DNA of 64,000 nucleotides from a virus, in the IMG/VR virus record IMGVR_UViG_3300045988_111022, one strand, 5' to 3'. Positions 10,799-63,762 of the stretch are shown here, in pieces; within the stretch, counting starts at the first letter, position 1; the number at the start of each line of letters is the position of its first letter. The notes under the pieces were generated by a model. It was not told the origin of the DNA. It did not search any database and saw nothing but the letters and a program-made list of their open reading frames with translations. Position numbers and translations under genes: made by a program.

Positions 10799-11750
10799 AG
10801 CAGTACAGCCGAAGAAATTGTACTTCTCTCAGGCAATGCAGACCGAGAAATACAAGAAACTCATAAATAATACCCTAGGCGATCCGGTACGCGCGGCACG
10901 ATTCGCTGCAAATATCACTTCTGCTGTGGCAGTTAACCCTACCTTGCAGGAGTGTGATGCAGGTACTATTTTGGCGGGTGCCCTTTTGGGTGAAAGCCTG
11001 CTCTTGCAGCCTTCCCCGCAGTTGGGCCAGTTCTACTTGGTGCCGTTCGAATCCAAAGCAAAACGTGACCGGCAGGGTAATGTGATTAAGCCGGCGTGTC
11101 TCAAGGCGCAATTCGTTTTGGGTTACAAGGGATACATCCAGTTGGCTCTGAGAACGGGCCAGTACAAGCGCCTGAATGTTCTGGAAGTCAAATCCGGGGA
11201 ACTGGGCGGTTGGGATCCCTTTGAAGAGCGTTTCCATGAAATGCACTTCATCGAAGATTTTGAAAAGCGTGCAGCAATGCCGACTGTGGGCTACATTGCC
11301 CATTTTGAGTATATCAATGGTTTCCAGAAAACGCTGTACTGGACGGCAGACCAGATGATGTCTCATGCGGACAAATATTCCCCGGCATTCAGCGCCGCCG
11401 CATATAAGAAGCTGCTGAATGGTGAGATTCCGCAGAATGAGTTGTGGAAGTATTCGAGCTTCTGGTACAAAGACTTCGACGGGATGGCCAAAAAGACCAT
11501 GCTGCGCCAGTTGATTTCCAAGTGGGGCATTATGACGGCAGAAATGACGATGGCCTATGAAAGAGACGGCCATGTGATGATGCCGGACACCGCGAGCGGA
11601 GACCTGTTGCCGGAAGTGACCGATACCCCGGAACTCAGCCAGCAGGATGAGCAGGAACAGCCCAAAATCGAGCGGACGGCCAAAACTATGGACTTGCCGG
11701 AGCCGGAAGCAGACGAAGTGAAAGCGGCTGTTGATTTGGCGACACTCTGA
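10791..11750 (+). CDS. recT: RecT-family single-strand annealing recombinase
   Basis: ...AANITSAVAVNPTLQECDAGTILAGALLGESLLLQPSPQLGQFYLVPF...FVLGYKGYIQLALRTGQYK are typical RecT core motifs. Confidence 0.85.
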   Translation: MAKAVQPKKLYFSQAMQTEKYKKLINNTLGDPVRAARFAANITSAVAVNPTLQECDAGTILAGALLGESLLLQPSPQLGQFYLVPFESKAKRDRQGNVIKPACLKAQFVLGYKGYIQLALRTGQYKRLNVLEVKSGELGGWDPFEERFHEMHFIEDFEKRAAMPTVGYIAHFEYINGFQKTLYWTADQMMSHADKYSPAFSAAAYKKLLNGEIPQNELWKYSSFWYKDFDGMAKKTMLRQLISKWGIMTAEMTMAYERDGHVMMPDTASGDLLPEVTDTPELSQQDEQEQPKIERTAKTMDLPEPEADEVKAAVDLATL

Positions 11751-12418
11751 TGGTCAAGTACAACATTATCAGCACCGGAAGTGACGGCAACGCTACGATT
11801 TTGGAAGATTTTGTGCTGATAGACTGCGGGGTGCCTTACAAAGCGCTGGAGCCATATGTGACGAAGCTGAAACTTGTGCTTTTGACGCATATTCATTCAG
11901 ATCACTTCCAAAAGCGCACCATCAAGCGGCTTGCCGAAGAACGGCCAACGCTGCGCTTTGGGTGTTGCCGCTGGCTGGCACCGCCGCTTCTGGCCGCAGG
12001 GGTGCCGGAACGTCAGATTGATGTGCTGGAACCCCGGACCATGTACGGATACGGCCTGTGCAATGTGATTCCGTTCATGCTGGTGCATAACGTGCCGAAC
12101 TGCGGGTACAAGGTGCATTTTCCATCTGGCAAGGCGATTTATGCCACTGACACCAACAACCTGAACGGGGTGCAGGCACTCGGATATGACCTCTATTTGA
12201 TAGAAGCCAATTACAGAGACGAGGACATTCAGGCCAAAATCGCAGAGAAAAAGGCTGCTGGACAGTATGCCTATGAGATGCAGGTGCTCAAGAATCACCT
12301 ATCGGAAGCAAAGTGCAATGATTTCTTGGTGAGAAATATGCAGGCGAACAGCGTGTATATTCCTATGCACGTTCATGTTGACAAGGAGAAAACGGATGGT
12401 CGTAACGGCGAAAATTGA
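11750..12418 (+). CDS. MBL-fold metallo-hydrolase (probable recombination exonuclease partner)
   Basis: VLLTHIHSDH (HxHxDH) motif. ATGA-type overlap with recT. Confidence 0.75.
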   Translation: MVKYNIISTGSDGNATILEDFVLIDCGVPYKALEPYVTKLKLVLLTHIHSDHFQKRTIKRLAEERPTLRFGCCRWLAPPLLAAGVPERQIDVLEPRTMYGYGLCNVIPFMLVHNVPNCGYKVHFPSGKAIYATDTNNLNGVQALGYDLYLIEANYRDEDIQAKIAEKKAAGQYAYEMQVLKNHLSEAKCNDFLVRNMQANSVYIPMHVHVDKEKTDGRNGEN

Positions 12419-35795: not shown

Positions 35796-35871
35796 GCAGT
35801 CATAGCTCAGTTGGTAGAGCGCCTGCCCTCCAAGCAGGATGCCGCGGGTTCGAGCCCCGTTGACTGCTCCA
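35796..35871 (+). tRNA. tRNA, probable Gly (anticodon UCC) with C at position 33
   Basis: Hand-folded cloverleaf: acceptor GCAGTCA/TGACTGC, D arm GCTC-AGTTGGTA-GAGC, anticodon arm CCTGC-CCTCCAA-GCAGG, T arm GCGGG-TTCGAGC-CCCGT. CCA is encoded. Confidence 0.75.
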
Positions 35872-35874
35872 TAT

Positions 35875-35947
35875 CGAGGGTTGGCCAAGTTGGATAAGGC
35901 ATGGGCCTTTGACTCCCAGACCGCCGGTTCGAGTCCGGTACCCTCGA
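35875..35947 (+). tRNA. tRNA-Gln (anticodon UUG)
   Basis: Acceptor CGAGGGT/ACCCTCG, D arm GCC-AAGTTGGATAA-GGC (Gln-like), anticodon loop CTTTGAC, T arm GCCGG-TTCGAGT-CCGGT. No encoded CCA. C31-U39 mismatch. Confidence 0.7.
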
Positions 35948-35952
35948 CTTAT

Positions 35953-36029
35953 GCTGGTGTAGCTCAGTTGGACAGAGCAGTTGATTTGTAATCTTCAGGT
36001 CGTGGGTTCAAATCCCATCCCCAGCTCCA
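35953..36029 (+). tRNA. tRNA-Thr-like (anticodon UGU) with weakened stems
   Basis: Acceptor GCTGGTG/CCCCAGC (one U-C mismatch). Anticodon arm GTTGA-TTTGTAA-TCTTC (two U-U mismatches). T arm GTGGG-TTCAAAT-CCCAT. CCA is encoded. Confidence 0.55.
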
Positions 36030-51570: not shown

Positions 51571-52605
51571 ATGGCGGATGCACGTTCGGGAGCGGAACTG
51601 GCCGACTATTCCAAGGTGGCATTTTCGGTTGGGGGCGTTCGGCAGGAAATTTCGATTGACGATTGGCGAAATGGATGGGCCGCAATCGTTGGCGGCTTGA
51701 ACGGAAAACCGACAAGTCAACAGTTTAACATGGTGTTCTATATTCTGTCTGTGTTGCTAAATCAGAACATTTCGGATGTTTCGGCGGTTAAGAGTACGGC
51801 AAACGCAGCATTGCCGAAAGAAAGCTTTACGGCGGAACAGATTGTGGCGCTGCTTTCTGAGTATGGGCGTATGTCTGGATGCAATGCAGATATGCTGGAC
51901 GGAAAGCACGCGGACGCATTTGCTGCGGATAAGCACAGCCATTCGGCAAGTGACATTACAAGCGGGAATTTGCCGATTGAACGCGGCGGTACTGGCGCTG
52001 GCACCTCTGCTGATGCGTGTCGTGCTCTTGGCGCTATGCGGAACACAGGCGGTACCTTTACGGGAACGGTCTATTTTGCAAATGGCACAGCGCACTACGT
52101 CAGCTCTGCGGGAGATGCGCATTTTAGATCGGTGACTGCGAGCGAGGACATTCATGCAAAACGAGTGTTTGAAGCGGTCTACAACGACTACGCGGAGCTG
52201 ATGCCCCGCGGCGAGGACACCGAACCGGGTGATATTATTGCGCTGGATACTAACAGCCGGCAAGAAAAATATGTCAAAGCAACCAATCTTTCGAGCCGGA
52301 TTGCTGGAATCCATTCGGACGAATACGGAATGCTGATCGGCGGAGAGCGGGTCAATGATGGGGAGGATTTCTTGAAAAAGAATCTTCCCCGTTTTATTCC
52401 TGTTTCGCTTGCCGGACGTGTCCACACAAAGGTCATTGGCCCGGTAAACACGGGAGACTGCATTGTGCTTTCCCATATTCCGGGGGTTGGCCGTGCGGCA
52501 AAACCGTGTGAATATGTTGACCCGTGCAAAGTGGTTGGTTATGCGGTTGAGGGTGACAATTTGACTGAACAGCGTCGGCTTAAAGTCAGAGTGAGAGGTG
52601 CTTAA
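51571..52605 (+). CDS. Tail fibre protein
   Basis: ADMLDGKHADAFAADKHSHSASDITSGNLPIERGGTGAGT is a signature fibre motif. The C-terminal domain has a GD.I pattern. Confidence 0.75.
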   Translation: MADARSGAELADYSKVAFSVGGVRQEISIDDWRNGWAAIVGGLNGKPTSQQFNMVFYILSVLLNQNISDVSAVKSTANAALPKESFTAEQIVALLSEYGRMSGCNADMLDGKHADAFAADKHSHSASDITSGNLPIERGGTGAGTSADACRALGAMRNTGGTFTGTVYFANGTAHYVSSAGDAHFRSVTASEDIHAKRVFEAVYNDYAELMPRGEDTEPGDIIALDTNSRQEKYVKATNLSSRIAGIHSDEYGMLIGGERVNDGEDFLKKNLPRFIPVSLAGRVHTKVIGPVNTGDCIVLSHIPGVGRAAKPCEYVDPCKVVGYAVEGDNLTEQRRLKVRVRGA

Positions 52606-53717
52606 TGGCTAACTGGGGGCAAAAAGTCTATCCCTCGGACTACTCCGAAATCAAAGCCTTGCTCAAGGCTGAGATAGGGAGACGCGGGAAAACGGAGGGA
52701 ACAGCGCGAGGGCAGAGCGTCGGCAGCATGGCGAGCTATAACGACTCTGCATACGACTTCTCGACACAACCGAAAGCAGGCGCGTACATCAAAAACGAGC
52801 ACATCCAAAAAATTACGAAGCCTTTGGATGCAATCAAAGGAACATCGACTACGCCCGGGAATGGGGTGCAAATCACAGCGAGCAGGCTGAGTCAAGCAGC
52901 GGCGGTGTTGAGTGAGCTGAGCGCAATCCCGGAAACCGCTACATCAAGCGGGTGTGCTGGCCGCTGTTCAGGCCTATGTTCTACGGGATGCAATACGGCT
53001 TGCACGAGCTGTACAGGCTCCTGTACTGGGAGCTGCACAGGGTCTTGCGTGGCATCGTGCGCCAATGATTGCGCTGGCGGATGCAAGGGAAGCTGCCAGG
53101 GAACGTGCATGGGGTCCTGCACGGGAACCTGCACTAGAGCGTGTGCAAATAACTGCTCCAGCACTTGCACGGGGTCCTGTACGGGGTCCTGCACGGGTTC
53201 GTGTACGGGAACGTGCACAAAGGCGTGTGCGAATGATTGTGCCGGCACTTGCGCGGGGTCCTGTACGGGAAGCTGTACGGGAAGCTGCACTGGAAGTTGC
53301 ATCGGAGGCTGTAACACAACTTGCACGAAGAATTGCGCAAATAACTGTTCTGGTTCCTGCTCCGGCGGATGTTCGGGCGGCTGCTATGGTTCGTGTGATG
53401 GGTGCTCTTCGACTTGTGAGGGCGGCTGTGGAAGCAGCTGTTCTGATAATTGCTCAAGTAAATGTATCCAGCAATGCAGTTCGACGTGTGCGAATGACTG
53501 CTCCGGCAGCTGTGTGAACCTTGGTTGTGCATTCAACTGCGGAAGTGACTGCTCTAACCATTGCTCCGGCGGCTGTTCTGGAGGCTGTGGTTCTCAATGC
53601 AGAAGCGGCTGTGACGTCTTTTGCACGGGGTGCAGTTCAACGTGCGCAGATGACTGCTCCGGATCCTGCAGCGGTGGTTGTAGTGGCTGCTCTGGCTTCC
53701 TGTGGAGCAAATCGTGA
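52605..53717 (+). CDS. CXXX-repeat cysteine-ladder protein (putative rSAM substrate; fibre-module protein)
   Basis: 370 aa. After ~110 N-terminal residues there are 63 Cys, and 57 of the 62 Cys-Cys intervals are exactly 4 residues (CTGS, CSGG, CAND...). TAATG overlap with the fibre gene. Confidence 0.85.
   Translation: MANWGQKVYPSDYSEIKALLKAEIGRRGKTEGTARGQSVGSMASYNDSAYDFSTQPKAGAYIKNEHIQKITKPLDAIKGTSTTPGNGVQITASRLSQAAAVLSELSAIPETATSSGCAGRCSGLCSTGCNTACTSCTGSCTGSCTGSCVASCANDCAGGCKGSCQGTCMGSCTGTCTRACANNCSSTCTGSCTGSCTGSCTGTCTKACANDCAGTCAGSCTGSCTGSCTGSCIGGCNTTCTKNCANNCSGSCSGGCSGGCYGSCDGCSSTCEGGCGSSCSDNCSSKCIQQCSSTCANDCSGSCVNLGCAFNCGSDCSNHCSGGCSGGCGSQCRSGCDVFCTGCSSTCADDCSGSCSGGCSGCSGFLWSKS
52940..53700 (+). 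repeat. Degenerate 12-nt-period tandem repeat (coding, TGC-NNN-NNN-NNN)
   Basis: For example tgcacggggtcctgtacggggtcctgcacgggttcgtgtacgggaacgtgcac. Encodes the CXXX ladder. Confidence 0.85.
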
Positions 53718-53734
53718 TGAAAGGAGAAATCCAA

Positions 53735-54316
53735 ATGGAGACAACGCTTCATTTTGCACAGAATGCAGATGCAGGAACGGAAGAATCCTATCTCAGGAAT
53801 CTTCCGCTTCTGAAGCTGCTTGCAAAAGAGAACATTGAAGCAGACGATTGGAGCGTCCTGCTTGCGGCAACGCCGAATAATGAGGACAAGTTGTTGTGGT
53901 GTCTTGGTTACACGGGTACCCTCTGTGCGCTGGACGCAACGGACTTTGATGATTGGGTGGTTTACTGCTCTACGGTGGTTCTGTCTGCGCTGGAGGCGTG
54001 CGGGGTTGAAGCGCCCGATGAACGGAAGAATCTTCTGTCCATCGGGCTGGCGGCGCGCACATTCAATTTTTCTGGCAACCCGGTGACAAAAAATCTGAAA
54101 TGTGCAGAAACGATTCAAGGCGCGGCAAGCTATAACTGCACTGAGGATGCCGACATTTTTTCGATGTGGTATCTTTTGCAGGTGCTTACTGAGTATCTGC
54201 GGCTGGACTTCAACGGCAATCTCCGGGAACTGATTGACGCCATGAAAACCATGAACAAGATTCGTGACCGTTACCGTCAGATCGCAGACCGCCTCCCGAA
54301 GATGGATGCCTGCTAA
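53735..54316 (+). CDS. Hypothetical protein of the CXXX cassette (193 aa)
   Basis: ATG at 53735, 7 nt after AAAGGAG. No motif recognised. Confidence 0.65.
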   Translation: METTLHFAQNADAGTEESYLRNLPLLKLLAKENIEADDWSVLLAATPNNEDKLLWCLGYTGTLCALDATDFDDWVVYCSTVVLSALEACGVEAPDERKNLLSIGLAARTFNFSGNPVTKNLKCAETIQGAASYNCTEDADIFSMWYLLQVLTEYLRLDFNGNLRELIDAMKTMNKIRDRYRQIADRLPKMDAC

Positions 54317-54326
54317 GGAGAAGAAT

Positions 54327-54629
54327 ATGAAAGCCATTAAATTGACCACGGCGGAAAGCGAAGCGGTGGAGCGAGCTTACTATGAAGCAAGCTCTTTTGA
54401 AGCGCTGATGGCGGTTCTGTGCCGCCAGCTTAACGCGGATGCAAATCCGGAAACCGCAAAGGTGATCCGCCATTATGCAGAACTGTGCCGTGCGGCTCAA
54501 ATGAAGCTGAAGATGGTACAGGAAATGGTGATCTCCCGGTATCTTGACCATCAGACGTCGGCGGGTGTGCAGTACAGGTTTGATTTTGTTCGAGAGGAGG
54601 TCGTTCTCCTTGAAGCAACGGCGAATTGA
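54327..54629 (+). CDS. Small helical protein of the CXXX cassette (100 aa; possible modification-system partner)
   Basis: ATG at 54327, 6 nt after AAGGAG. Immediately upstream of the rSAM gene. Confidence 0.65.
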   Translation: MKAIKLTTAESEAVERAYYEASSFEALMAVLCRQLNADANPETAKVIRHYAELCRAAQMKLKMVQEMVISRYLDHQTSAGVQYRFDFVREEVVLLEATAN

Positions 54630-54642
54630 GGATTATGGAAAC

Positions 54643-55953
54643 ATGGTCCAAAGGCTGTATGCGCGCGATACTGCGGCTGAGAACCGCGTCTGTTGCCGGA
54701 ACATTACGTTCCAAGTGACAAGCGGGTGCAATCTCAGGTGCTCATACTGCTATGAGCACCACAAGAGCGTTGAGCGAATGAGCATCGAGACCGGGCGAAA
54801 GGTCGTAGATTACATCCTTGACCTGTACGAGAAAAATGAGTCCGATTTCGTAAATCAGAATACGCGGGCAGTTGTGCTGGATTTTATTGGCGGAGAGCCA
54901 TTGCTTGAAGCCGAACTGATTGAGCACATCTGCGACTACTGGTTCTCAGAGTGCTACCGCCGAGAGATTCCGCTTGCGCCGTTCACGAGGATCAGCTTTG
55001 CGACGAATGGCAAGTTGTGGTTTTCTTCGGCGGCGCAGCACCTGTTCGCAAAATACCATGAGATGATGTCTGTGACTGTCAGCATTGACGGCGTTCAAGA
55101 GTTGCATGACAAGTACAGAGTGGATGAGCATGGGATTGGCAGCTTTTCGCTGGCATGGAAGGCATTTCAGGCAGGAAAAAAGGATTTTGGGTGGCTTACG
55201 TCCAAGATGACCTTTGTTCCGGGATCTTTTCAGTACATTGCCGACAGCATCAAAATGATGCTGGATGAGGGATGCGTGGAAATCGCTTGCAACTACGCTT
55301 ACGAACCTGTCTACACTCCCGAAGATGGCCGTACACTGTATGAACAGATGCAGATGGTCTCTGACTACATTATTTCCCGACGAATGGATGTCACGATTAC
55401 GATGCTGGACGACCTTTTGGGCGGACAGGCTAAGGATGACAATAATTTCTGCGGCGGTACGGGAGCGATGCTGTCGTTTGCACCGGATGGGAGTGCCTAT
55501 CCCTGCATTCGGTACGCTCCGATTTCCATTGGCGAGGAAAAATCGCAGAAAGTCCGTTTCGGCAGCATCTATGATGGACTGTATGCCACGGATGCCCAGC
55601 GTCAGGCAAAAGCGGAATTGGATGCCATCACCCGTACATCTCAATCTCCGCAGGAGTGCTTAGAGTGCCCTGTATCAGCTGGCTGTGGCTGGTGTAGCGG
55701 CCTTAACTATGAATTATTCGGTACGGCCAATAAACGCTCCACAGCCATTTGTTGGGCGCACAAAGCGCGTGTTCTGGCAAGCTGTTACTATCACAATCGC
55801 CGTTATCTGGAAATCGGAGACCGTCTCCCAATCGAGGTGAGGCTTCCGGCCGAAGATGGGCTGAAGATTCTGCCCGCCGAGAAATGGGCGGAGCTGATGC
55901 ACATTGAGACAGCGGCGCTCATGAAGTTTGCTGATGAAGTCGGGATTAGTTGA
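54643..55953 (+). CDS. Radical SAM / SPASM-domain maturase (anSME-like architecture)
   Basis: TSGCNLRCSYCYEHH (CX3CX2C). C-terminal Cys clusters CGGTGAMLSFAPDGSAYPC and CLECPVSAGCGWCSG. Confidence 0.85.
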   Translation: MVQRLYARDTAAENRVCCRNITFQVTSGCNLRCSYCYEHHKSVERMSIETGRKVVDYILDLYEKNESDFVNQNTRAVVLDFIGGEPLLEAELIEHICDYWFSECYRREIPLAPFTRISFATNGKLWFSSAAQHLFAKYHEMMSVTVSIDGVQELHDKYRVDEHGIGSFSLAWKAFQAGKKDFGWLTSKMTFVPGSFQYIADSIKMMLDEGCVEIACNYAYEPVYTPEDGRTLYEQMQMVSDYIISRRMDVTITMLDDLLGGQAKDDNNFCGGTGAMLSFAPDGSAYPCIRYAPISIGEEKSQKVRFGSIYDGLYATDAQRQAKAELDAITRTSQSPQECLECPVSAGCGWCSGLNYELFGTANKRSTAICWAHKARVLASCYYHNRRYLEIGDRLPIEVRLPAEDGLKILPAEKWAELMHIETAALMKFADEVGIS

Positions 55954-55967
55954 AAGGAGGGAGCGCA

Positions 55968-56873
55968 ATGGCAATCCTCATTGCCGATACCAAGTTGGAG
56001 ACCGAAACCGATGCTTGGTATATGTTCTATGCTGACACAAAGGAAGACATACAAACATTGCCGACGAGTACATCTACAGGATCTTCTTATCGGGTAAGAA
56101 AGTATGCTCGACCGACGAGCGTTGCATACTGCATAGAAGAAGCAAGGCAGTATATGCTGGATAGCAAAGATCGGTGGCGCGCAATGTGCGGTCTTTCTGA
56201 TAGCGTTTTGGATGCCTTGAGTAAAAGTGCTGCAGAACTTTTGGCTATATGCAAGGACACGGAGAACTTTCGGGATGAAGCGGTGAAAAGTGCTGAAAAG
56301 GCAGAGAAAGATAAAGAAGCATCTGCTGCCAATGCTCTCGCTGCAGATAGAAGCGCGAAAAAAGCCAGTGAGAGCGAGGGCGTTGCTTCTCAAAAAGCAG
56401 AAAATGCGAAAGAAGCAGCAGAAGCTTCAAACAAATCCGCTGAAGAAGCATCGAAAAGTGCGGCAGGTGCACTTGCAAGTGAGCAGGCTGCGTCTGAGAG
56501 CGCACGACTTTCCTCTATTAGCGAAGCCGCTTCAAAAGATGCAATGAATGAGGCTAAAGATTTTTCAAATTCAGCGTCGAAATCTGCTAGAGAGGCTCTT
56601 GAATCAAAACGTGCTGCAGAAGACGCTGCCAATAGTGCCTCCGAATCCAGCCTTGCCGCCGCAAGTTCGGAGAGAGCGGCAACAGAAAAAGCGGCAGAAT
56701 CATCTGAACTGGCAATAAGGACCGAAAAAAATGCAGAGTTATCAAAAGAAAGCAGTGAAACGGCTATTAAAGCAGCTGCAGAAGCAAAGAAAGCTCTGTC
56801 AATGCTGTCATTCGCTTTTGGAATCGATGATGAGGGCCGTTTTTCGCTGTTTGCGAAAAAATCTATAACATAA
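55968..56873 (+). CDS. Ala/Ser/Glu-rich coiled-coil fibre-like protein
   Basis: GAAAGGAGGGAG RBS. Long SAxxA/KxAxEAxxS heptad-like low-complexity region. The N-terminal motif is shared with 50740-50985. Confidence 0.65.
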   Translation: MAILIADTKLETETDAWYMFYADTKEDIQTLPTSTSTGSSYRVRKYARPTSVAYCIEEARQYMLDSKDRWRAMCGLSDSVLDALSKSAAELLAICKDTENFRDEAVKSAEKAEKDKEASAANALAADRSAKKASESEGVASQKAENAKEAAEASNKSAEEASKSAAGALASEQAASESARLSSISEAASKDAMNEAKDFSNSASKSAREALESKRAAEDAANSASESSLAAASSERAATEKAAESSELAIRTEKNAELSKESSETAIKAAAEAKKALSMLSFAFGIDDEGRFSLFAKKSIT

Positions 56874-56888
56874 ATGGTTATAATCTAA

Positions 56889-56908
56889 CAAAAATGATAC
56901 GAACAGAT
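56889..56908 (+). promoter_or_regulatory. TATAAT followed by the ATCTAACAA half-site (internal promoter candidate)
   Basis: TATAAT at 56889-56894. ATCTAACAAAAATGAT at 56893-56908. Same -10/CTAACA juxtaposition as at 4403-4420 and 62399-62411. Confidence 0.35.
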
Positions 56909-56948
56909 GTTTTGTTGATATAATCGGCAATGGAAAGGGGAACGAGCA

Positions 56949-58679
56949 ATGGACGGTTGGGATTTTGTTGGTCATCCGGTGACGGATGAATCGGCAAAGG
57001 AAGCAATCGAGCAATTAAAAAGGCAAAACGACATTCTGACTGGCATAGCTGCCGGTAATGCTGGTGCTGAGTTCGTTGACGCAATCTTCGATGGCCTGTT
57101 GGATGGTCAGAACACGAGTGAGGTGTTCTGGAATTGGTGGCCACTGTCTACCGGAAACGGCGCGACAAAATACCAGCGCTTGGAGCGTTTCGCCAAGATG
57201 CTGGCCAAGTATACAAAAGGCAAAACCTACACCGTGCGCTTTTACGGCGATGATGTGAGTAGCGACTATACAGGCACTCCGCTGGATGACTTGGCGGACG
57301 GCCGTGAAGCTGCGCCGCTCCTGACGGATACAAGCCCTGAGACAGCGGATTGGTCTGAGGAAGACCCGTTTACATGGTATATCCGTGCGAATGCGCTTTC
57401 TCTGGAAGATGGCACCATGAATGTGCTGGCGCTGGAGGGCGAAGCAGAGTTTGACCTTTCGGGCGAGACGGCTCCCGTCTACTGCTTTGCGCTGGCGTTG
57501 ACCATGAAAGAATGGGAGGACGGCACCTATATCTATAACAGTTGGCGTACCTTCTCCGGCGGTGGCTATGAACCTATGGCTGGTGATGTAGCCCCGGACA
57601 AGAGCCGCCGCTGGCTGACATGGCACCCTGCGTTCCATGGCGGTAAAAATTCCAAGGGCGGCATGACCAGCGGTGCCGGACTGCCCCCGATGCCGTGGAC
57701 AAGCGCCAACGATGCCATCACTCTGGCTCGTAAAATCACGGCTTATGATGCCTTGTGGACTGACTGCGACCAGCAGTATGTTTTGGCTCAGTGGCGGCTG
57801 CGCCATTGGACGCTGAGCAACAGCGGCAAGCTGGAGGGCTGCACGTCCTACAATTACCAGTATACCCCGGCGGTGGCCGAGACCGGAGTAAAGCGTGTGC
57901 TTGCGACGAAAGCGCAGGGCGCAAACTTCCTCGTGGGTTCTGCGGTATGTATGGGCGAGCGCGGCGAAAATACCAGCACAGACCGCAATTTGTCCTATAA
58001 CCATGACATTTTCAACTGGGCCAAGATTTCCAGCATTACCAATGTGACCGTGAACGATACGGAGTATGTGGCTCTGAACCTTGAGCTGGATGCTCCCATT
58101 GACACCACAACCACAATGCTGGTCTCTACTATGCCGTGGGAGTCCGGCACGACTGAGGTGGTTCCGGGTCACAGCGATGGATGCCGTGGTAATCTGACGA
58201 ATGGCAAATATCCGTACCGCGTGGCGGGCATCGAGATGCAGATTGGCGCATACGTCGAGCAGCTGGACCCTCTGTGGAAAGCAAGCCTCGTCGATGATGA
58301 CCATTGGCATTACGATGTGTTCTCCTGCAAGAGCGGTGAGAAGCAGGTCGGTTCTATTTCTTCGGACTATGCCCAGACCGGCTCCTTCGACCTGAACGAC
58401 AAGGCAACTTGGTCGTGGCATTATATCCGCAAGCTGGGCAAGCTTGGCGCGGAAGCCATGATGTATGAAAAGTTCAATGGCAGTGGCTCCACCTATGTAC
58501 GGGCTGCGTTCATTTCGCCCGGTTCGGCGGGCGTGTACGCCCCTTGGCGCGGTGGCAACCTGGATGACGGTGCTAACTGCGGCCTGCCTTGTGCGAATGG
58601 CAACAATGGCCCCGGCACGGCGAACTGGAACGGTGTGCCTCGGCATGCTGATGATAAAATAGCCCTCAAAAGGGCATAA
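56949..58679 (+). CDS. Large distal fibre / receptor-binding-like protein (576 aa)
   Basis: Position in the module. C-terminus PWRGGNLDDGANCGLPCANGNNGPGTANWNGVPR resembles the Gly/Asn-rich lectin-like tips of phage fibres. Confidence 0.55.
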   Translation: MDGWDFVGHPVTDESAKEAIEQLKRQNDILTGIAAGNAGAEFVDAIFDGLLDGQNTSEVFWNWWPLSTGNGATKYQRLERFAKMLAKYTKGKTYTVRFYGDDVSSDYTGTPLDDLADGREAAPLLTDTSPETADWSEEDPFTWYIRANALSLEDGTMNVLALEGEAEFDLSGETAPVYCFALALTMKEWEDGTYIYNSWRTFSGGGYEPMAGDVAPDKSRRWLTWHPAFHGGKNSKGGMTSGAGLPPMPWTSANDAITLARKITAYDALWTDCDQQYVLAQWRLRHWTLSNSGKLEGCTSYNYQYTPAVAETGVKRVLATKAQGANFLVGSAVCMGERGENTSTDRNLSYNHDIFNWAKISSITNVTVNDTEYVALNLELDAPIDTTTTMLVSTMPWESGTTEVVPGHSDGCRGNLTNGKYPYRVAGIEMQIGAYVEQLDPLWKASLVDDDHWHYDVFSCKSGEKQVGSISSDYAQTGSFDLNDKATWSWHYIRKLGKLGAEAMMYEKFNGSGSTYVRAAFISPGSAGVYAPWRGGNLDDGANCGLPCANGNNGPGTANWNGVPRHADDKIALKRA

Positions 58680-58895
58680 GCGTTTCATTGCGCCTGTGGC
58701 TTGACCACTAAGATCATGTTATACCGACACCATGCAGCTGAGCGTTTCGAGAGATACGGACGCATTGGTGAGAGCGTGGCCGCAGTTTTTGGGACTGCGT
58801 GGCGGCGAGTAGTAGAAATCCGTTCTGCCTGATTTAAGGCCGGGGACGGCAACCGAAAGTCGTTGAACATCAGCAAGTTTGGAGGCTTTAAGGAT
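58680..58895 (+). other. Structured non-coding leader upstream of the RT (candidate ncRNA)
   Basis: 216 nt without a credible ORF. Imperfect hairpins: ACACCATGC...GCATTGGTG (about 58726-58772), GGCCGCAG-TTTTTGGGA-CTGCGTGGC, CCGTTCTGCC...GGCCGGGGACGG. Confidence 0.35.
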
Positions 58896-60140
58896 ATGAA
58901 AACAAAGAGGTTCTTACAGCTCACGCACGCAATGTGTGAGCAGGCTGTCCTTGAAGCGTTTGATAAAAAATGGTTCCGCCGGGATTACCTCGCCACGGTG
59001 GAGAAATATGGAGGTGTGAGCCGTGCAGAATTATCGCGCGCCGCCCGGTTAAACGACTGGAATCTGCGTTTGGAAGTAGTGAACAGCATTGCTCTCGAAA
59101 TGGAACAACGCGTGGAAGACCTTGTGGAAGGCGAGACGGACGACCTCGACCTTGAACCTGTGAGCGTATTTTATCGAATTGATGGGATCAGCATGAAACG
59201 GCGTGAGCTGTCCAACTGCTGCCCGATGCACCAAGCCTTTGGACATTTGGCGGTGATTGGACTGCGGCCGCTGCTTCGCGCAAAATTGCTTCCGTATCAA
59301 TTCGCCAGCATCCCCGGAAAGGGGCAGATTGCTCTAAAACGTCAGGTTGAGCGTTGGCTTCGCAGGAAAAGCCTTGGAATTCAACACGCAGTCAAGCTGG
59401 ATGTGCAGGGAGCGTATGCCCATACGAAACAGGCTGTCGTGATGGATATTCTGCGGCGTGAGATTCCGGGTGCGACATGGTTGCTGGCGGTCATCAAATG
59501 CTTGCTAGCGATGGCACCGGGCGAGGGACTGCTCATTGGCGGATACCTCGAAGCGTGGCTTTTCAACCTTGTTGCCAGCTATATGCTGGTAAAGGTGTTG
59601 AGCTATGCAAAGACTCGCCGAGGAGCGTCTACGCCGTTTGTGACCCGCAGCGGCAGCTATATGGACGACCTTGTTCTACTTGGGCGACGATGGGCCGATA
59701 TACAAAGTGCGGCCCGGAAATTGACTAAGTGGGCGCTGGCTGAATTTGGGCTGACCATAAAAACCGAGTGGGTTCGGGTGGATTTTCTAAGCGCGGCTGA
59801 AGAACATCAGCGCCGACACATGACTGGAGCGGCGAAAGGGTGTCCGGGCTTGGATATGGCTGGCTATGTGATGCACCGTACCTACACCACGATACGCCCC
59901 AGAATTTTTCTGAGGGCTCGGCGGCAGTACATTCGAGCCAAGGCTGATGTTTCACGAAATGGATATGTGCCGGTCTGGCGGTCATACAAGCTGGTCAGCT
60001 ATAACGGCTATTTTGACTGGACAAAATCTCGTGCAATCAGCGAAGCCCTAAAACAGAAAAAGCTGTTCACGGCCGCAAAAGTAGCAATCCGCGTAACGGC
60101 ACAAAGAAATGCAATGAAGAAAGTGAGGATAGCAGCATGA
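58896..60140 (+). CDS. Reverse transcriptase (unclassified; non-canonical motif 4)
   Basis: RT motifs: SIPGKGQIALKR (1/2), KLDVQGAYAH (A/3), GLLIGGYLEAWLFNL (B/4; no SQ), SYMDDLVLLG (C/5, YxDD), GLTIKTEW (D/6). GGAGG RBS. ATGA overlap with the next gene. Confidence 0.8.
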   Translation: MKTKRFLQLTHAMCEQAVLEAFDKKWFRRDYLATVEKYGGVSRAELSRAARLNDWNLRLEVVNSIALEMEQRVEDLVEGETDDLDLEPVSVFYRIDGISMKRRELSNCCPMHQAFGHLAVIGLRPLLRAKLLPYQFASIPGKGQIALKRQVERWLRRKSLGIQHAVKLDVQGAYAHTKQAVVMDILRREIPGATWLLAVIKCLLAMAPGEGLLIGGYLEAWLFNLVASYMLVKVLSYAKTRRGASTPFVTRSGSYMDDLVLLGRRWADIQSAARKLTKWALAEFGLTIKTEWVRVDFLSAAEEHQRRHMTGAAKGCPGLDMAGYVMHRTYTTIRPRIFLRARRQYIRAKADVSRNGYVPVWRSYKLVSYNGYFDWTKSRAISEALKQKKLFTAAKVAIRVTAQRNAMKKVRIAA

Positions 60141-60469
60141 TTTTTATCGAGAACCTTGACCATAATCCGCAGGCAGTAACGCTGGAAAAACTGCCGGATG
60201 GTACGGCTTGGCTGTACCTGCGTAAGGACGCTCATGAGGTGCGAACCGAGGCTCCCGAAGGAGAGCAGGGCGGTACTTCGTGGGAATGCACCACGGCGCT
60301 TTGTAAGTTGGGCGCTGATTATACGGAGGAGACCGAAGAGAGCATCACGGCTGCAGCTGATGATTGGTGGGTCTATGCAGAAGCGTGGACGACTGCCGAT
60401 GACGCTGCGCCCTCTCTGGAAGAGCGAGTGAGCGTGCTGGAAACCATGTTCATGGGAGGTGAGCTGTAA
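60137..60469 (+). CDS. Hypothetical protein (XkdW-position)
   Basis: 110 aa. Translationally coupled to the RT and to the XkdX-like ORF. Confidence 0.55.
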   Translation: MIFIENLDHNPQAVTLEKLPDGTAWLYLRKDAHEVRTEAPEGEQGGTSWECTTALCKLGADYTEETEESITAAADDWWVYAEAWTTADDAAPSLEERVSVLETMFMGGEL

Positions 60470-62310: not shown

Positions 62311-62366
62311 ACACCCCCGTCACCTGTCAGATGAAAAGTCGAAACAGGTGACGGGGGTGTTTTTTG
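62311..62366 (+). terminator. Very strong rho-independent terminator (provisional right end of the phage late region)
   Basis: ACACCCCCGTCACCTGT (62311-62327) / ACAGGTGACGGGGGTGT (62344-62360), followed by TTTTTT. Confidence 0.9.
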
Positions 62367-62385
62367 CTTTTTATGCAATAAAGAA

Positions 62386-62411
62386 TCACAAAATTCGTGA
62401 TAATCTAACAA
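62386..62411 (+). promoter_or_regulatory. Palindrome TCAC-N7-GTGA overlapping GATAAT and an ATCTAACAA half-site
   Basis: TCACAAAATTCGTGA at 62386-62400. GATAAT at 62399-62404. ATCTAACAA at 62403-62411. Upstream of the XRE gene. Confidence 0.35.
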
Positions 62412-62738: not shown

Positions 62739-62946
62739 GGGAAAGGGCGGCTTTCGGGTCGTCCTTTTTCTGTTGCGTGACATTTGTATGAAACAAATGT
62801 ATTATAATAATGTATATGGCAGTTGAATGGAGCATTTGATGGTCCGCCGGGGTGAATTTTGTGCCACCTTGAAAAAAGTGCGGTTTTGTGGTATTCTTTA
62901 TGTGACAAATGATTCATTCAAGTGTTATATAAAAGTAGGTGAGCCG

Positions 62947-63762
62947 ATGGGAGAGAATAAGACGCCGCAGGAGTTGGACTTTGAGCGGAAGCATGAAGAG
63001 TATCTGCATCGGATTCAGAATCTTCGCCTTATCGACGATAACTTTATGACGAAAGTTTTTGAAGATAAAGAGTGTTCGGAGTTTCTGCTTCAGGTGATTT
63101 TAGACCGTGATGACCTGACAATTCGTGAAGTTCACAGTCAATACGGCTTGAATAATATTCAAGGTCGCTCGGCCCGCTTGGATATTCTAGCCGTGGATGA
63201 GCAGAATAAAGCCTATAACATTGAGATCCAGCGCAACGACCGCGGTGCAGAGGTCAGACGAGCTCGTTACAACAGCGGTTTGATGGATGCCAATATTACG
63301 GAGCCGGGTGATCGTTACGACCAACTATATGAAACCTATGTGATATTTATCACTGAAAATGATATTTTGAAAGCCGGTCTCCCGATTTATCATATCGAAC
63401 GGACAATCCAAGAAACGGGAATGCCGTTCGGAGATGGAGCACATATTATTTATGTGAACTCTCAAATCAAGGATGATACCAAACTGGGCCGTTTGATGCA
63501 GGATTTTACCTGCACAAACCCGGATGATATGAATTATCCGGTACTGGCGCAGCGGGTACGCTATTTCAAAGAGGACACGAAAGGAGTGGCAACTATGTGC
63601 AGAGCTTTTGAAGAAGTGAGAGAAGAAGGCATGCGGGCAAATGCACTTGAGGCGGCCAAGCGGTTGCTCTTAGGCGGCAAGTTGTCCTATGAGGAAATTG
63701 CCGAAGCTCAAGGGCTGACCGTCGAGGAAGTCAAGGCGCTTGACGCAAAGCGGTCCGCCTGA
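62947..63762 (+). CDS. Rpn-family / PD-(D/E)XK nuclease-type putative transposase
   Basis: RLIDDNFMTKVFEDKECSEFLLQVIL...RSARLDILAVDEQNKAYNIEIQRND...YVIFITENDI... is the typical Rpn/YhgA-like core (D...E.Q). ATG at 62947 after AGGTGAG. Confidence 0.75.
   Translation: MGENKTPQELDFERKHEEYLHRIQNLRLIDDNFMTKVFEDKECSEFLLQVILDRDDLTIREVHSQYGLNNIQGRSARLDILAVDEQNKAYNIEIQRNDRGAEVRRARYNSGLMDANITEPGDRYDQLYETYVIFITENDILKAGLPIYHIERTIQETGMPFGDGAHIIYVNSQIKDDTKLGRLMQDFTCTNPDDMNYPVLAQRVRYFKEDTKGVATMCRAFEEVREEGMRANALEAAKRLLLGGKLSYEEIAEAQGLTVEEVKALDAKRSA

Follow-up and report, generated by a model that had tools for sequence, protein, structure and literature searches.

The locus described here raises the question of what a protein with a long run of regularly spaced cysteines, and a radical S-adenosylmethionine (SAM) enzyme encoded beside it, are doing among the tail-fibre genes of a phage. 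The DNA analysed—hereafter the window—is the whole stretch of 64,000 nucleotides from the IMG/VR record IMGVR_UViG_3300045988_111022, a myovirus-type phage genome or prophage in which the genes for the portal, major capsid protein, sheath, tape measure, baseplate hub and wedge proteins follow in order. The element in question is a cassette of four genes, coding for the cysteine-ladder protein, two accessory proteins of 193 and 100 residues (acc193 and acc100) and the radical SAM/SPASM enzyme. It is proposed, with a probability of about 55%, to be a maturation system of the CXXX-repeat radical SAM/SPASM type, adapted to phages, the enzyme of which would crosslink the ladder into a product that travels with the virion. 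Judged from the sequence comparisons below, the cassette represents a divergent, phage-specific branch of the CXXX-repeat radical SAM system that is fixed within tail-fibre modules.

Organisation of the cassette

The ladder protein, acc193, acc100 and the radical SAM enzyme are encoded by a single tightly packed operon segment, coupled translationally to the tail-fibre gene 51571-52605. The start codon of the ladder gene overlaps the stop codon of this fibre gene (TAATG), the three genes behind it—lying on the same strand and having strong ribosome-binding sites, as confirmed here—are spaced by 10-17 nt and preceded by AAGGAG or GAGGA, and the intergenic gaps over the cassette as a whole range from -1 to 17 nt. 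Promoter-like and terminator-like signals across the region do not exceed the expectation from shuffled sequence, and none of them convincingly splits the cassette. The four-gene segment has been passed on as a unit across many phages. Signal peptide, exporter—of either the twin-arginine translocation (Tat) or the ATP-binding cassette (ABC) type—and leader peptidase are all absent among the genes of the phage cassette.

The ladder protein

The product of the open reading frame (ORF) 52605-53717 consists of 370 residues. An initial annotation, made from the sequence alone, had described an ordinary N-terminus followed by a cysteine run, with lengths of ~110 and ~255 residues; this architecture holds, the lengths being corrected to 116 residues for the N-terminal domain and 246 for the ladder. 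Its remaining counts, i.e. the TAATG overlap, the 63 cysteines, the 57 four-residue intervals among the 62 Cys-to-Cys intervals and the 12-nt period of the DNA, were borne out by a recount of the sequence and by Tandem Repeats Finder (TRF). The other intervals are of three residues (four cases) and five residues (one case). When the same 246 ladder residues were shuffled 20,000 times, the number of four-residue cysteine intervals averaged 6.6 and never exceeded 17, compared with 57 in the real ladder. The DNA under the ladder combines the 12-nt periods with a higher-order period of 84 nt, corresponding to seven units (TRF).

With regard to known families, the ladder scores 27.3 bits with the repeat model TIGR04114, above its cutoff of 20, and matches phrog_6085, listed in PHROGs as of unknown function; its homologues bear the domain PF27846 (tSAM_targ_Cxxx_rpt). 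The motif GCxxSC[ST]GLCxxGC, by which the ladder opens, is common to the family and always present. Family-wide, 83% of the intervals are of four residues and 13% of three, and within the CXXX units the position X2 is occupied by Gly in 51%, X1 and X3 being mostly Ser, Thr or Gly and X3 being Asp in only ~5%. The ladder in the window includes the units CAND, CANN, CADD and CSDN. The phage-type ladder family covers at least 1,411 protein clusters, typically of ~220 residues with ~27 cysteines, and the size of the ladder varies across lineages from 13 (L058) to 95 cysteines (L086).

The ladder is under strong purifying selection. Among ten variants from the clade of the window, with a synonymous divergence of about 0.20, the ratio of nonsynonymous to synonymous polymorphism (pN/pS) is 0.06 for the ladder and 0.09 for the N-terminal domain, and both the ladder length and all 63 cysteines are unchanged. 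This low ratio and the fixed length rule out the ladder as a hypervariable receptor surface or a drifting low-complexity sequence.

The 116-residue N-terminal domain is predicted by AlphaFold2 (AF2) to be helical (helices 10-27, 64-78 and 92-107), with a predicted local distance difference test score (pLDDT) of ~90, and a fold search with this model revealed no relative in the PDB. The unmodified ladder gave pLDDT values of 30-65 and no fold, as would be expected if its structure depends on crosslinks. Among 1.84 billion representative proteins searched (full-length proteins), the helical domain was never seen without a ladder; the idea of a reusable attachment module carried by other proteins was therefore dropped. 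The domain may, nevertheless, come after the ladder instead of before it (L092, L097, P0082), the prophage genes with this inverted order being located at 11906-12904 in L092 and at 11187-11933 and 19080-19682 in L097, the latter directly behind a 1144-aa fibre-like gene. It should be pointed out here that many database "homologues" of the ladder (P0002, P0006 and several among P0121-P0149) are artefacts, among them frameshifted translations of the 12-nt repeat region, indicating that this repeat is error-prone in assemblies. In one artefactual database chimera, the ladder is joined to the C-terminus of the radical SAM enzyme.

The radical SAM/SPASM enzyme

The best NCBIfam match of the enzyme is TIGR04115, "radical SAM peptide maturase, CXXX-repeat target family", with 308 bits over the model positions 2-359 of 359. 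The family names that the initial annotation had given do exist, as TIGR04115, TIGR04116 and TIGR04119, and its expectation for searches with hidden Markov models (HMMs) came true in part: TIGR04115 is the best match and TIGR04114 was passed, but the enzyme stays below the TIGR04115 cutoff and the two small genes match no model. Other phage members score 301-385 bits with TIGR04115 and the canonical member from a Bacteroidota-like contig (L002) scores 630. The next radical SAM families follow at 145 bits for PapB (NF047865, cutoff 340), 91 for CcpM and 81 for the SCIFF maturase (cutoff 425), so that TIGR04115 leads by a factor of two in bits. The enzyme also matches phrog_1802.

The initial annotation had named a grouping with sulfatase-maturating enzymes as one of the outcomes that would speak against its proposal. 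The model of the anaerobic sulfatase maturase (anSME), TIGR03942, yields 58 bits, its cutoff being 349, and no sulfatase gene is present among the neighbours of the enzyme in the window. The sulfatase-maturase reading is ruled out by these 58 bits as compared with the 308 bits of TIGR04115, and the model scores support placing the enzyme in the CXXX-repeat-target SPASM family.

Both cysteine signatures described earlier were confirmed. The enzyme carries CNLRCSYC (CX3CX2C) and the complete set of seven SPASM cysteines, and the residues C29, C33, C36, C270, C288, C339, C342, C348, C351 and C370 are invariant in an alignment of 13 sequences—12 from phages and one canonical cellular enzyme. Among solved structures, that of the thioether synthase CteB is the nearest (5WGG; E 1.3e-16). 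This match starts at CteB residue 95, i.e. past the recognition element (RRE) for RiPPs (peptides synthesised ribosomally and modified after translation), which indicates that the phage enzyme has no built-in RRE.

Concerning its start, the gene annotated as 54643-55953 is real, but translation more likely begins at TTG 54610 rather than at ATG 54643, judging from the conservation and signals around it. A GGAGG lies 9 nt upstream of this TTG, the extended gene would overlap the end of acc100 by 20 nt (start region 54544-54643), and the N-terminus MKQRRIEDYGN that it would add contains the stretch EDYGN, which is conserved in homologues.

The accessory proteins

The protein acc100 is characterised by the family pattern T.EES..VERL.Y ... 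AQ..V ... F.FDF...EV.C.W and by an AF2 model (pLDDT 87.6) with a strand, two long helices and a hairpin (beta-alpha-alpha-beta-beta), for which a fold search in the PDB found no relative. Its sole matches are uncharacterised orthologues of ~90 residues from other gut phages, and neither acc100 nor acc193 matches any curated model of NCBIfam, Pfam, PHROG or PADLOC. A leave-out HMM of acc100, built from 13 members of the myo-type and sipho-type, finds the N-terminal extension of the 550-aa radical SAM enzyme of L008 (residues 4-90, E 7.9e-6), as well as the equivalent genes of L003, L082 and L086 and a gene in the small-peptide cluster L095. In the lineage of L008, acc100 is thus fused to the N-terminus of the enzyme, and this fusion together with the match in L095 shows that acc100 is a general, physically associated and conserved partner of this radical SAM clade. 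Aligned by hhalign, acc100 and TIGR04116 are colinear over their whole length, but the match is weak (E 0.003, probability 10.6%) and only suggestive, and BLASTP between the two gave nothing. Judged from the absence of HMM matches at E 10, the two small proteins are probably not the canonical TIGR04116 and TIGR04119. A PqqD-like RRE was also considered for acc100 and rejected, because its model has another fold and matches no RRE or PqqD structure in the PDB.

The protein acc193 is predicted to be all-alpha, with neither a conserved Cys nor any other invariant residue, and is confined to the present myo-like and sipho-like lineages. It has no match in the PDB, Pfam, NCBIfam, PHROG or PADLOC, and with its leave-out HMM the proteins encoded at the same position in L003 and L008 are not detected. 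In L075 (7024-7914), acc193 and acc100 form a single ORF of 296 residues, whereas the near-identical L076 (7020-7914) has separate overlapping ORFs; the single ORF is due either to genuine fusion of the genes or to an erroneous frameshift.

Distribution and conservation

A scan of IMG/VR with the radical SAM enzyme yielded 76 loci at 48-99% identity. Among these, in ~70 viral contigs, the order fibre—ladder—acc193—acc100—radical SAM enzyme is held wherever upstream DNA exists. In an independent sample, consisting of phages picked by their baseplate-wedge gene (58-99% identity) and having at least 5.3 kb of downstream DNA, both the ladder and the enzyme are present in all relatives (46/46). The upstream fibre shares with its counterparts in the loci of the IMG/VR scan a conserved C-terminal domain of ~170 residues that is co-inherited with the cassette, whereas the N-termini vary from 338 to 537 residues. 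The cassette is best explained as fixed in the tail-fibre module of a myophage lineage infecting anaerobic gut Bacillota. The nearest cultured backbone is that of the Faecalibacterium phage FP_Brigit (portal 38% identical), in which neither the radical SAM nor the ladder search gave a match.

The position next to fibre genes, which the initial annotation had suggested surveying in other phages, is conserved in related and unrelated backbones alike. One cassette is found in a phage with a P22-type portal (L003), behind an 843-aa collagen-like tail fibre, another in a siphovirus-like phage (L006), ahead of the holin, and in four backbones other than that of the window the genes upstream of the cassette code for tail or fibre proteins. 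Prophages of Oscillospiraceae, Lachnospiraceae, Flavonifractor, Christensenellaceae and others carry it too, always adjoining tail/fibre genes. A ladder together with the enzyme is also encoded by the cultured isolate "Bacterium D16-76" (locus L103). The ladder ORF adjoins the enzyme gene in almost all viral loci for which sufficient DNA is available, and in genomes the ladders adjoin radical SAM enzymes at least 31% identical, not more distant ones. That the ladder is the substrate of the enzyme in a CXXX-type system is very probable.

Proposed mode of action

The maturation would take place in the anaerobic cytoplasm of the host late in infection, the enzyme using its SAM cluster and two auxiliary [4Fe-4S] clusters, with acc100 possibly acting as a substrate-presenting subunit that stands in for the missing RRE domain. 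Moving along the ladder, the enzyme would use the cysteine thiols to form numerous covalent links of short range, most likely thioethers to nearby Ser, Thr, Gly, Asn or Asp residues at the alpha or beta carbon. Thioethers are the most plausible bonds since the nearest characterised relatives—PapB, CteB and QhpD—make them, and on this analogy their formation is given somewhat better than even odds. The resulting rod or knot would be compact, insensitive to redox conditions and resistant to proteases, serving as a disulfide substitute for a phage assembled and used in a reducing environment, and the helical domain would bind it to the adjacent fibre, so that it might travel with the virion in the distal tail.

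An association with the tail is supported by the TAATG overlap, the tight gaps, the tail/fibre neighbours in other backbones, the 46/46 retention, the co-inherited C-terminus of the fibre and the lack of export genes. From homology and gene position, we infer both the thioether chemistry and the virion role of the ladder; for the association of the product with the virion, the odds are judged to be even. The most specific version of the proposal—that phages of strict anaerobes build a fibre-associated virion rod by a RiPP-type radical SAM thioether ladder, in which dozens of cysteines form an unbroken series of staples that replaces disulfides covalently and irrespective of redox state, with a length set per lineage (13 to 95 cysteines)—is more tentative and falls somewhat short of an even chance.

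Comparison with known systems and alternative explanations

The canonical cellular arrangement is seen in L002, where a ladder with a Tat signal is accompanied by a TIGR04115 enzyme, TIGR04119, TIGR04116 (91 residues), TatA and TatC. The phage system resembles it in having an enzyme of the same clade, colinear with TIGR04115 over the full length and identical in its CX3CX2C and 7-Cys SPASM patterns, in a substrate made of a long CXXX run rich in Gly, Ser and Thr, and in a partner protein of ~90-100 residues encoded alongside. The cellular system, however, has a twin-arginine signal right before the ladder, TIGR04116, a second, SPASM-only maturase (TIGR04119) and the adjacent TatA/TatC, whereas in the phage version the 116-residue helical domain replaces the signal, the N-terminus is hydrophilic and TIGR04119 is missing. 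The phage version further differs in acc193 and acc100, which are undetected by curated models, in the location in a tail-fibre operon and in an enzyme scoring below the family cutoff. The type of system is already catalogued in NCBIfam, Pfam and PHROGs but uncharacterised; new in the phage variant are its own domain architecture, its own accessory proteins and the obligate position in the tail module. Full-text literature searches found no paper on CXXX-repeat systems or on radical SAM enzymes in tail modules.

Export is a feature of several related clusters, with Tat ladders in L002 and L111 and ABC exporters in L095, L096 and L098, some of the substrates being peptides of 52-88 residues. 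The same radical SAM clade serves small RiPP-like precursors of 52-73 residues with 8 cysteines (L095 1166-6513, L096, L098), those in L095 being accompanied by a 720-aa fused radical SAM enzyme, an acc100-like protein and the ABC exporter. It might accordingly be argued that the modified ladder is not a virion component at all but a product freed at lysis, such as a large RiPP-like antimicrobial, a metal scavenger or a matrix-binding factor, with the maturase recognising the helical domain as a leader or follower. The same clade of enzymes and acc100 do work for exported small peptides and Tat-exported ladders, the helical domain occurs only with ladders, in a leader-like manner, and lysis would make a transporter unnecessary. 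The domain, however, can precede or follow the ladder (L092, L097, P0082), the cassette contains no leader peptidase, its gene is translationally coupled to a fibre gene, and it is fixed in 46/46 relatives, always inside the tail/fibre module and not in moron positions. A released factor is therefore regarded as unlikely, although it is the alternative that survives best.

By position, the ladder protein can be compared with Tfa of the phages Mu, P2 and lambda and with the gp38 adhesin of T2-like and S16-like phages, the genes of which also lie directly 3' of the fibre gene and are coupled to it. The gp38 adhesins build an unusual compact fold from Gly-rich repeats. There is, however, no similarity in sequence or fold between these proteins and the ladder protein, and Tfa and gp38 need no dedicated radical enzyme. 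The comparison nonetheless suggests that the modified ladder could be an assembly factor or scaffold, aiding the folding or trimerisation of the fibre and not kept in the mature particle. In its favour, apart from the coupled gene, the conserved C-terminal domain of the fibre travels along with the cassette and resembles intramolecular-chaperone (IMC) domains of the Peptidase_G2 type; the part of the fusion protein P0015 that is homologous to the fibre matches the Peptidase_G2 IMC (PF11962). A transient chaperone, on the other hand, has no obvious need for 13 to 95 crosslinkable cysteines and a three-cluster enzyme. Moreover, the ladder length is about five-fold variable between lineages and exactly fixed within each, which is more in keeping with a structural ruler than with a chaperone. 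The assembly factor is thus considered improbable.

As to the chemistry, the PapB/PapA (freyrasin) ranthipeptide system is alike in its SPASM radical SAM enzyme without an N-terminal RRE, which is the second-best family match, and in the repeated thioethers that PapB forms from Cys to a nearby residue in CSAND-like units (PMC12373016), similar units being present in the ladder of the window. PapA, unlike the phage substrate of 370 residues, is a short peptide that depends on a leader and contains six Cys-X3-Asp motifs. The synthase CteB, acting on CteA (SCIFF, thermocellin), has the 7-Cys SPASM motif too and gives the best match among solved structures, but it possesses an N-terminal RRE, unlike the phage enzyme. 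The CteB-type 7-Cys SPASM motif leaves open an auxiliary-cluster site that binds the substrate Cys. A use of the cysteines other than in thioethers—metal or Fe-S binding, or another radical SAM chemistry at Cys such as formylglycine formation, epimerisation or other C-C or C-S bonds—could be invoked because full-text searches found no paper on TIGR04115 chemistry, acidic acceptors are rare in the CXXX units and SPASM enzymes are chemically diverse, as seen from the range of families matched, yet it is improbable, given that the closest characterised relatives all form thioethers (PapB at 145 bits, CcpM/SCIFF at 81-91 bits, CteB), that anSME is distant, with 58 bits and no sulfatase nearby, and that the obligate pairing of enzyme and ladder argues for the cysteines as the reactive groups.

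The reading of the cassette as a maturation system for a virion-associated ladder also has several points against it, which are taken together here. The 308 bits of the enzyme lie below the curated TIGR04115 cutoff of 350; none of the 16 acc100 members matches the TIGR04116 HMM, even at E 10; and no protein of the cassette matches TIGR04119. PapB uses Asp or Glu as acceptor, and neither is present in the majority of the CXXX units. The collection contains no cultured phage with the cassette, and P0015, the only fusion of fibre and ladder, comes from a single contig of 1.9 kb. Finally, gene position does not prove incorporation into the virion, and tail-fibre chaperones, which occupy the same gene position, are often absent from virions.

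With the crosslinked ladder still taken as the preferred reading, the CXXX-repeat radical SAM family, present for years in curated HMM libraries without chemistry or biology, gains a defined and abundant setting in the tail modules of human-gut phages, and a minimal expressible unit of four genes is identified. If the product is structural, radical post-translational crosslinking joins the repertoire of virion assembly, and it may be explained how thin extracellular structures of anaerobes' phages are stabilised without disulfides. If true, radical crosslinks installed by an enzyme would be described for the first time in a structural protein of a phage, and the CXXX-repeat radical SAM family would receive its first function. 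A processive maturase treating at least 60 sites on one substrate would represent unusual enzymology, useful for peptide stapling.

Flanking fibre genes and the retroelement

The features of the cassette and its surroundings are listed in Table 1. The upstream tail fibre carries the motif HxHSAxDITSG..RGGTGA of R-type pyocin fibres (profile match to R1/R2, 6CL5, E 7e-6), and the downstream 576-aa gene is, in close relatives, the target of a diversity-generating retroelement (DGR); host-recognition genes thus flank the cassette on both sides. This agrees with the fibre genes proposed on either side in the initial annotation, except that the downstream gene given there as 55968-58679 consists of two ORFs, the first of which codes for a 301-aa protein that probably belongs to the distal fibre.

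Table 1 Coordinates of the cassette and the flanking genes in the window
Feature	Position	Strand	Remarks
Tail-fibre gene	51571..52605	+	344 aa; HxH fibre motif; conserved C-terminal domain ~170 aa
Ladder protein, N-terminal helical domain (predicted)	52605..52952	+	aa 1-116
Ladder protein, Cys ladder	52953..53717	+	63 Cys at aa 117-362, then short tail and stop codon
acc193, accessory protein (predicted all-alpha)	53735..54316	+	193 aa
acc100, conserved partner of the radical SAM clade (predicted beta-alpha-alpha-beta-beta)	54327..54629	+	100 aa
Radical SAM/SPASM maturase (putative)	54610..55953	+	probable start TTG 54610; alternative ATG 54643 (436 aa)
Ala/Ser/Glu-rich protein	55968..56873	+	301 aa; ~98-aa N-terminus kept in related phages
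Receptor-binding or fibre protein	56949..58679	+	576 aa; phrog_17147 709 bits; DGR target in close relatives

In the relatives with a DGR (L011, L018, L026, L035, L042 and L051), the 576-aa fibre gene has a variable repeat (VR) of 149 bp at its 3' end and a template repeat (TR) precedes the reverse transcriptase (RT), with all 12 mismatches of the VR/TR pair in L011 (11838-12660) falling at adenines of the TR (12/12). A canonical DGR was also sought in the window, where no TR/VR pair was found, which is explained by a collapse of 298 bp relative to L011. The region 58480-60140 lacks a segment of this length (VR plus spacer) present in L011, and the 576-aa gene consequently ends in a TR-type copy (58502-58650) with no second copy. 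The collapse reflects either a recombination between VR and TR or an assembly collapse. The RT of the window, situated within 58863-60469, has 425 residues and matches phrog_1423 with 212 bits, the matches to Pfam RVT_1 and PADLOC being weak, and a 110-aa ORF behind it (60137-60469) is a candidate Avd-like accessory protein.

Other features of the window

A cluster of three tRNA genes (Gly-TCC, Gln-TTG and Thr-TGT) at 35796-36029 lies between the portal gene and the head genes. An ORF resembling transposases of the PD-(D/E)XK family (phrog_3300, PF12784) is found close to the window's end, at 62827-63762. Imperfect direct repeats of 58 nt, 72% identical to each other, are located at 56834-56891 and 62354-62411.

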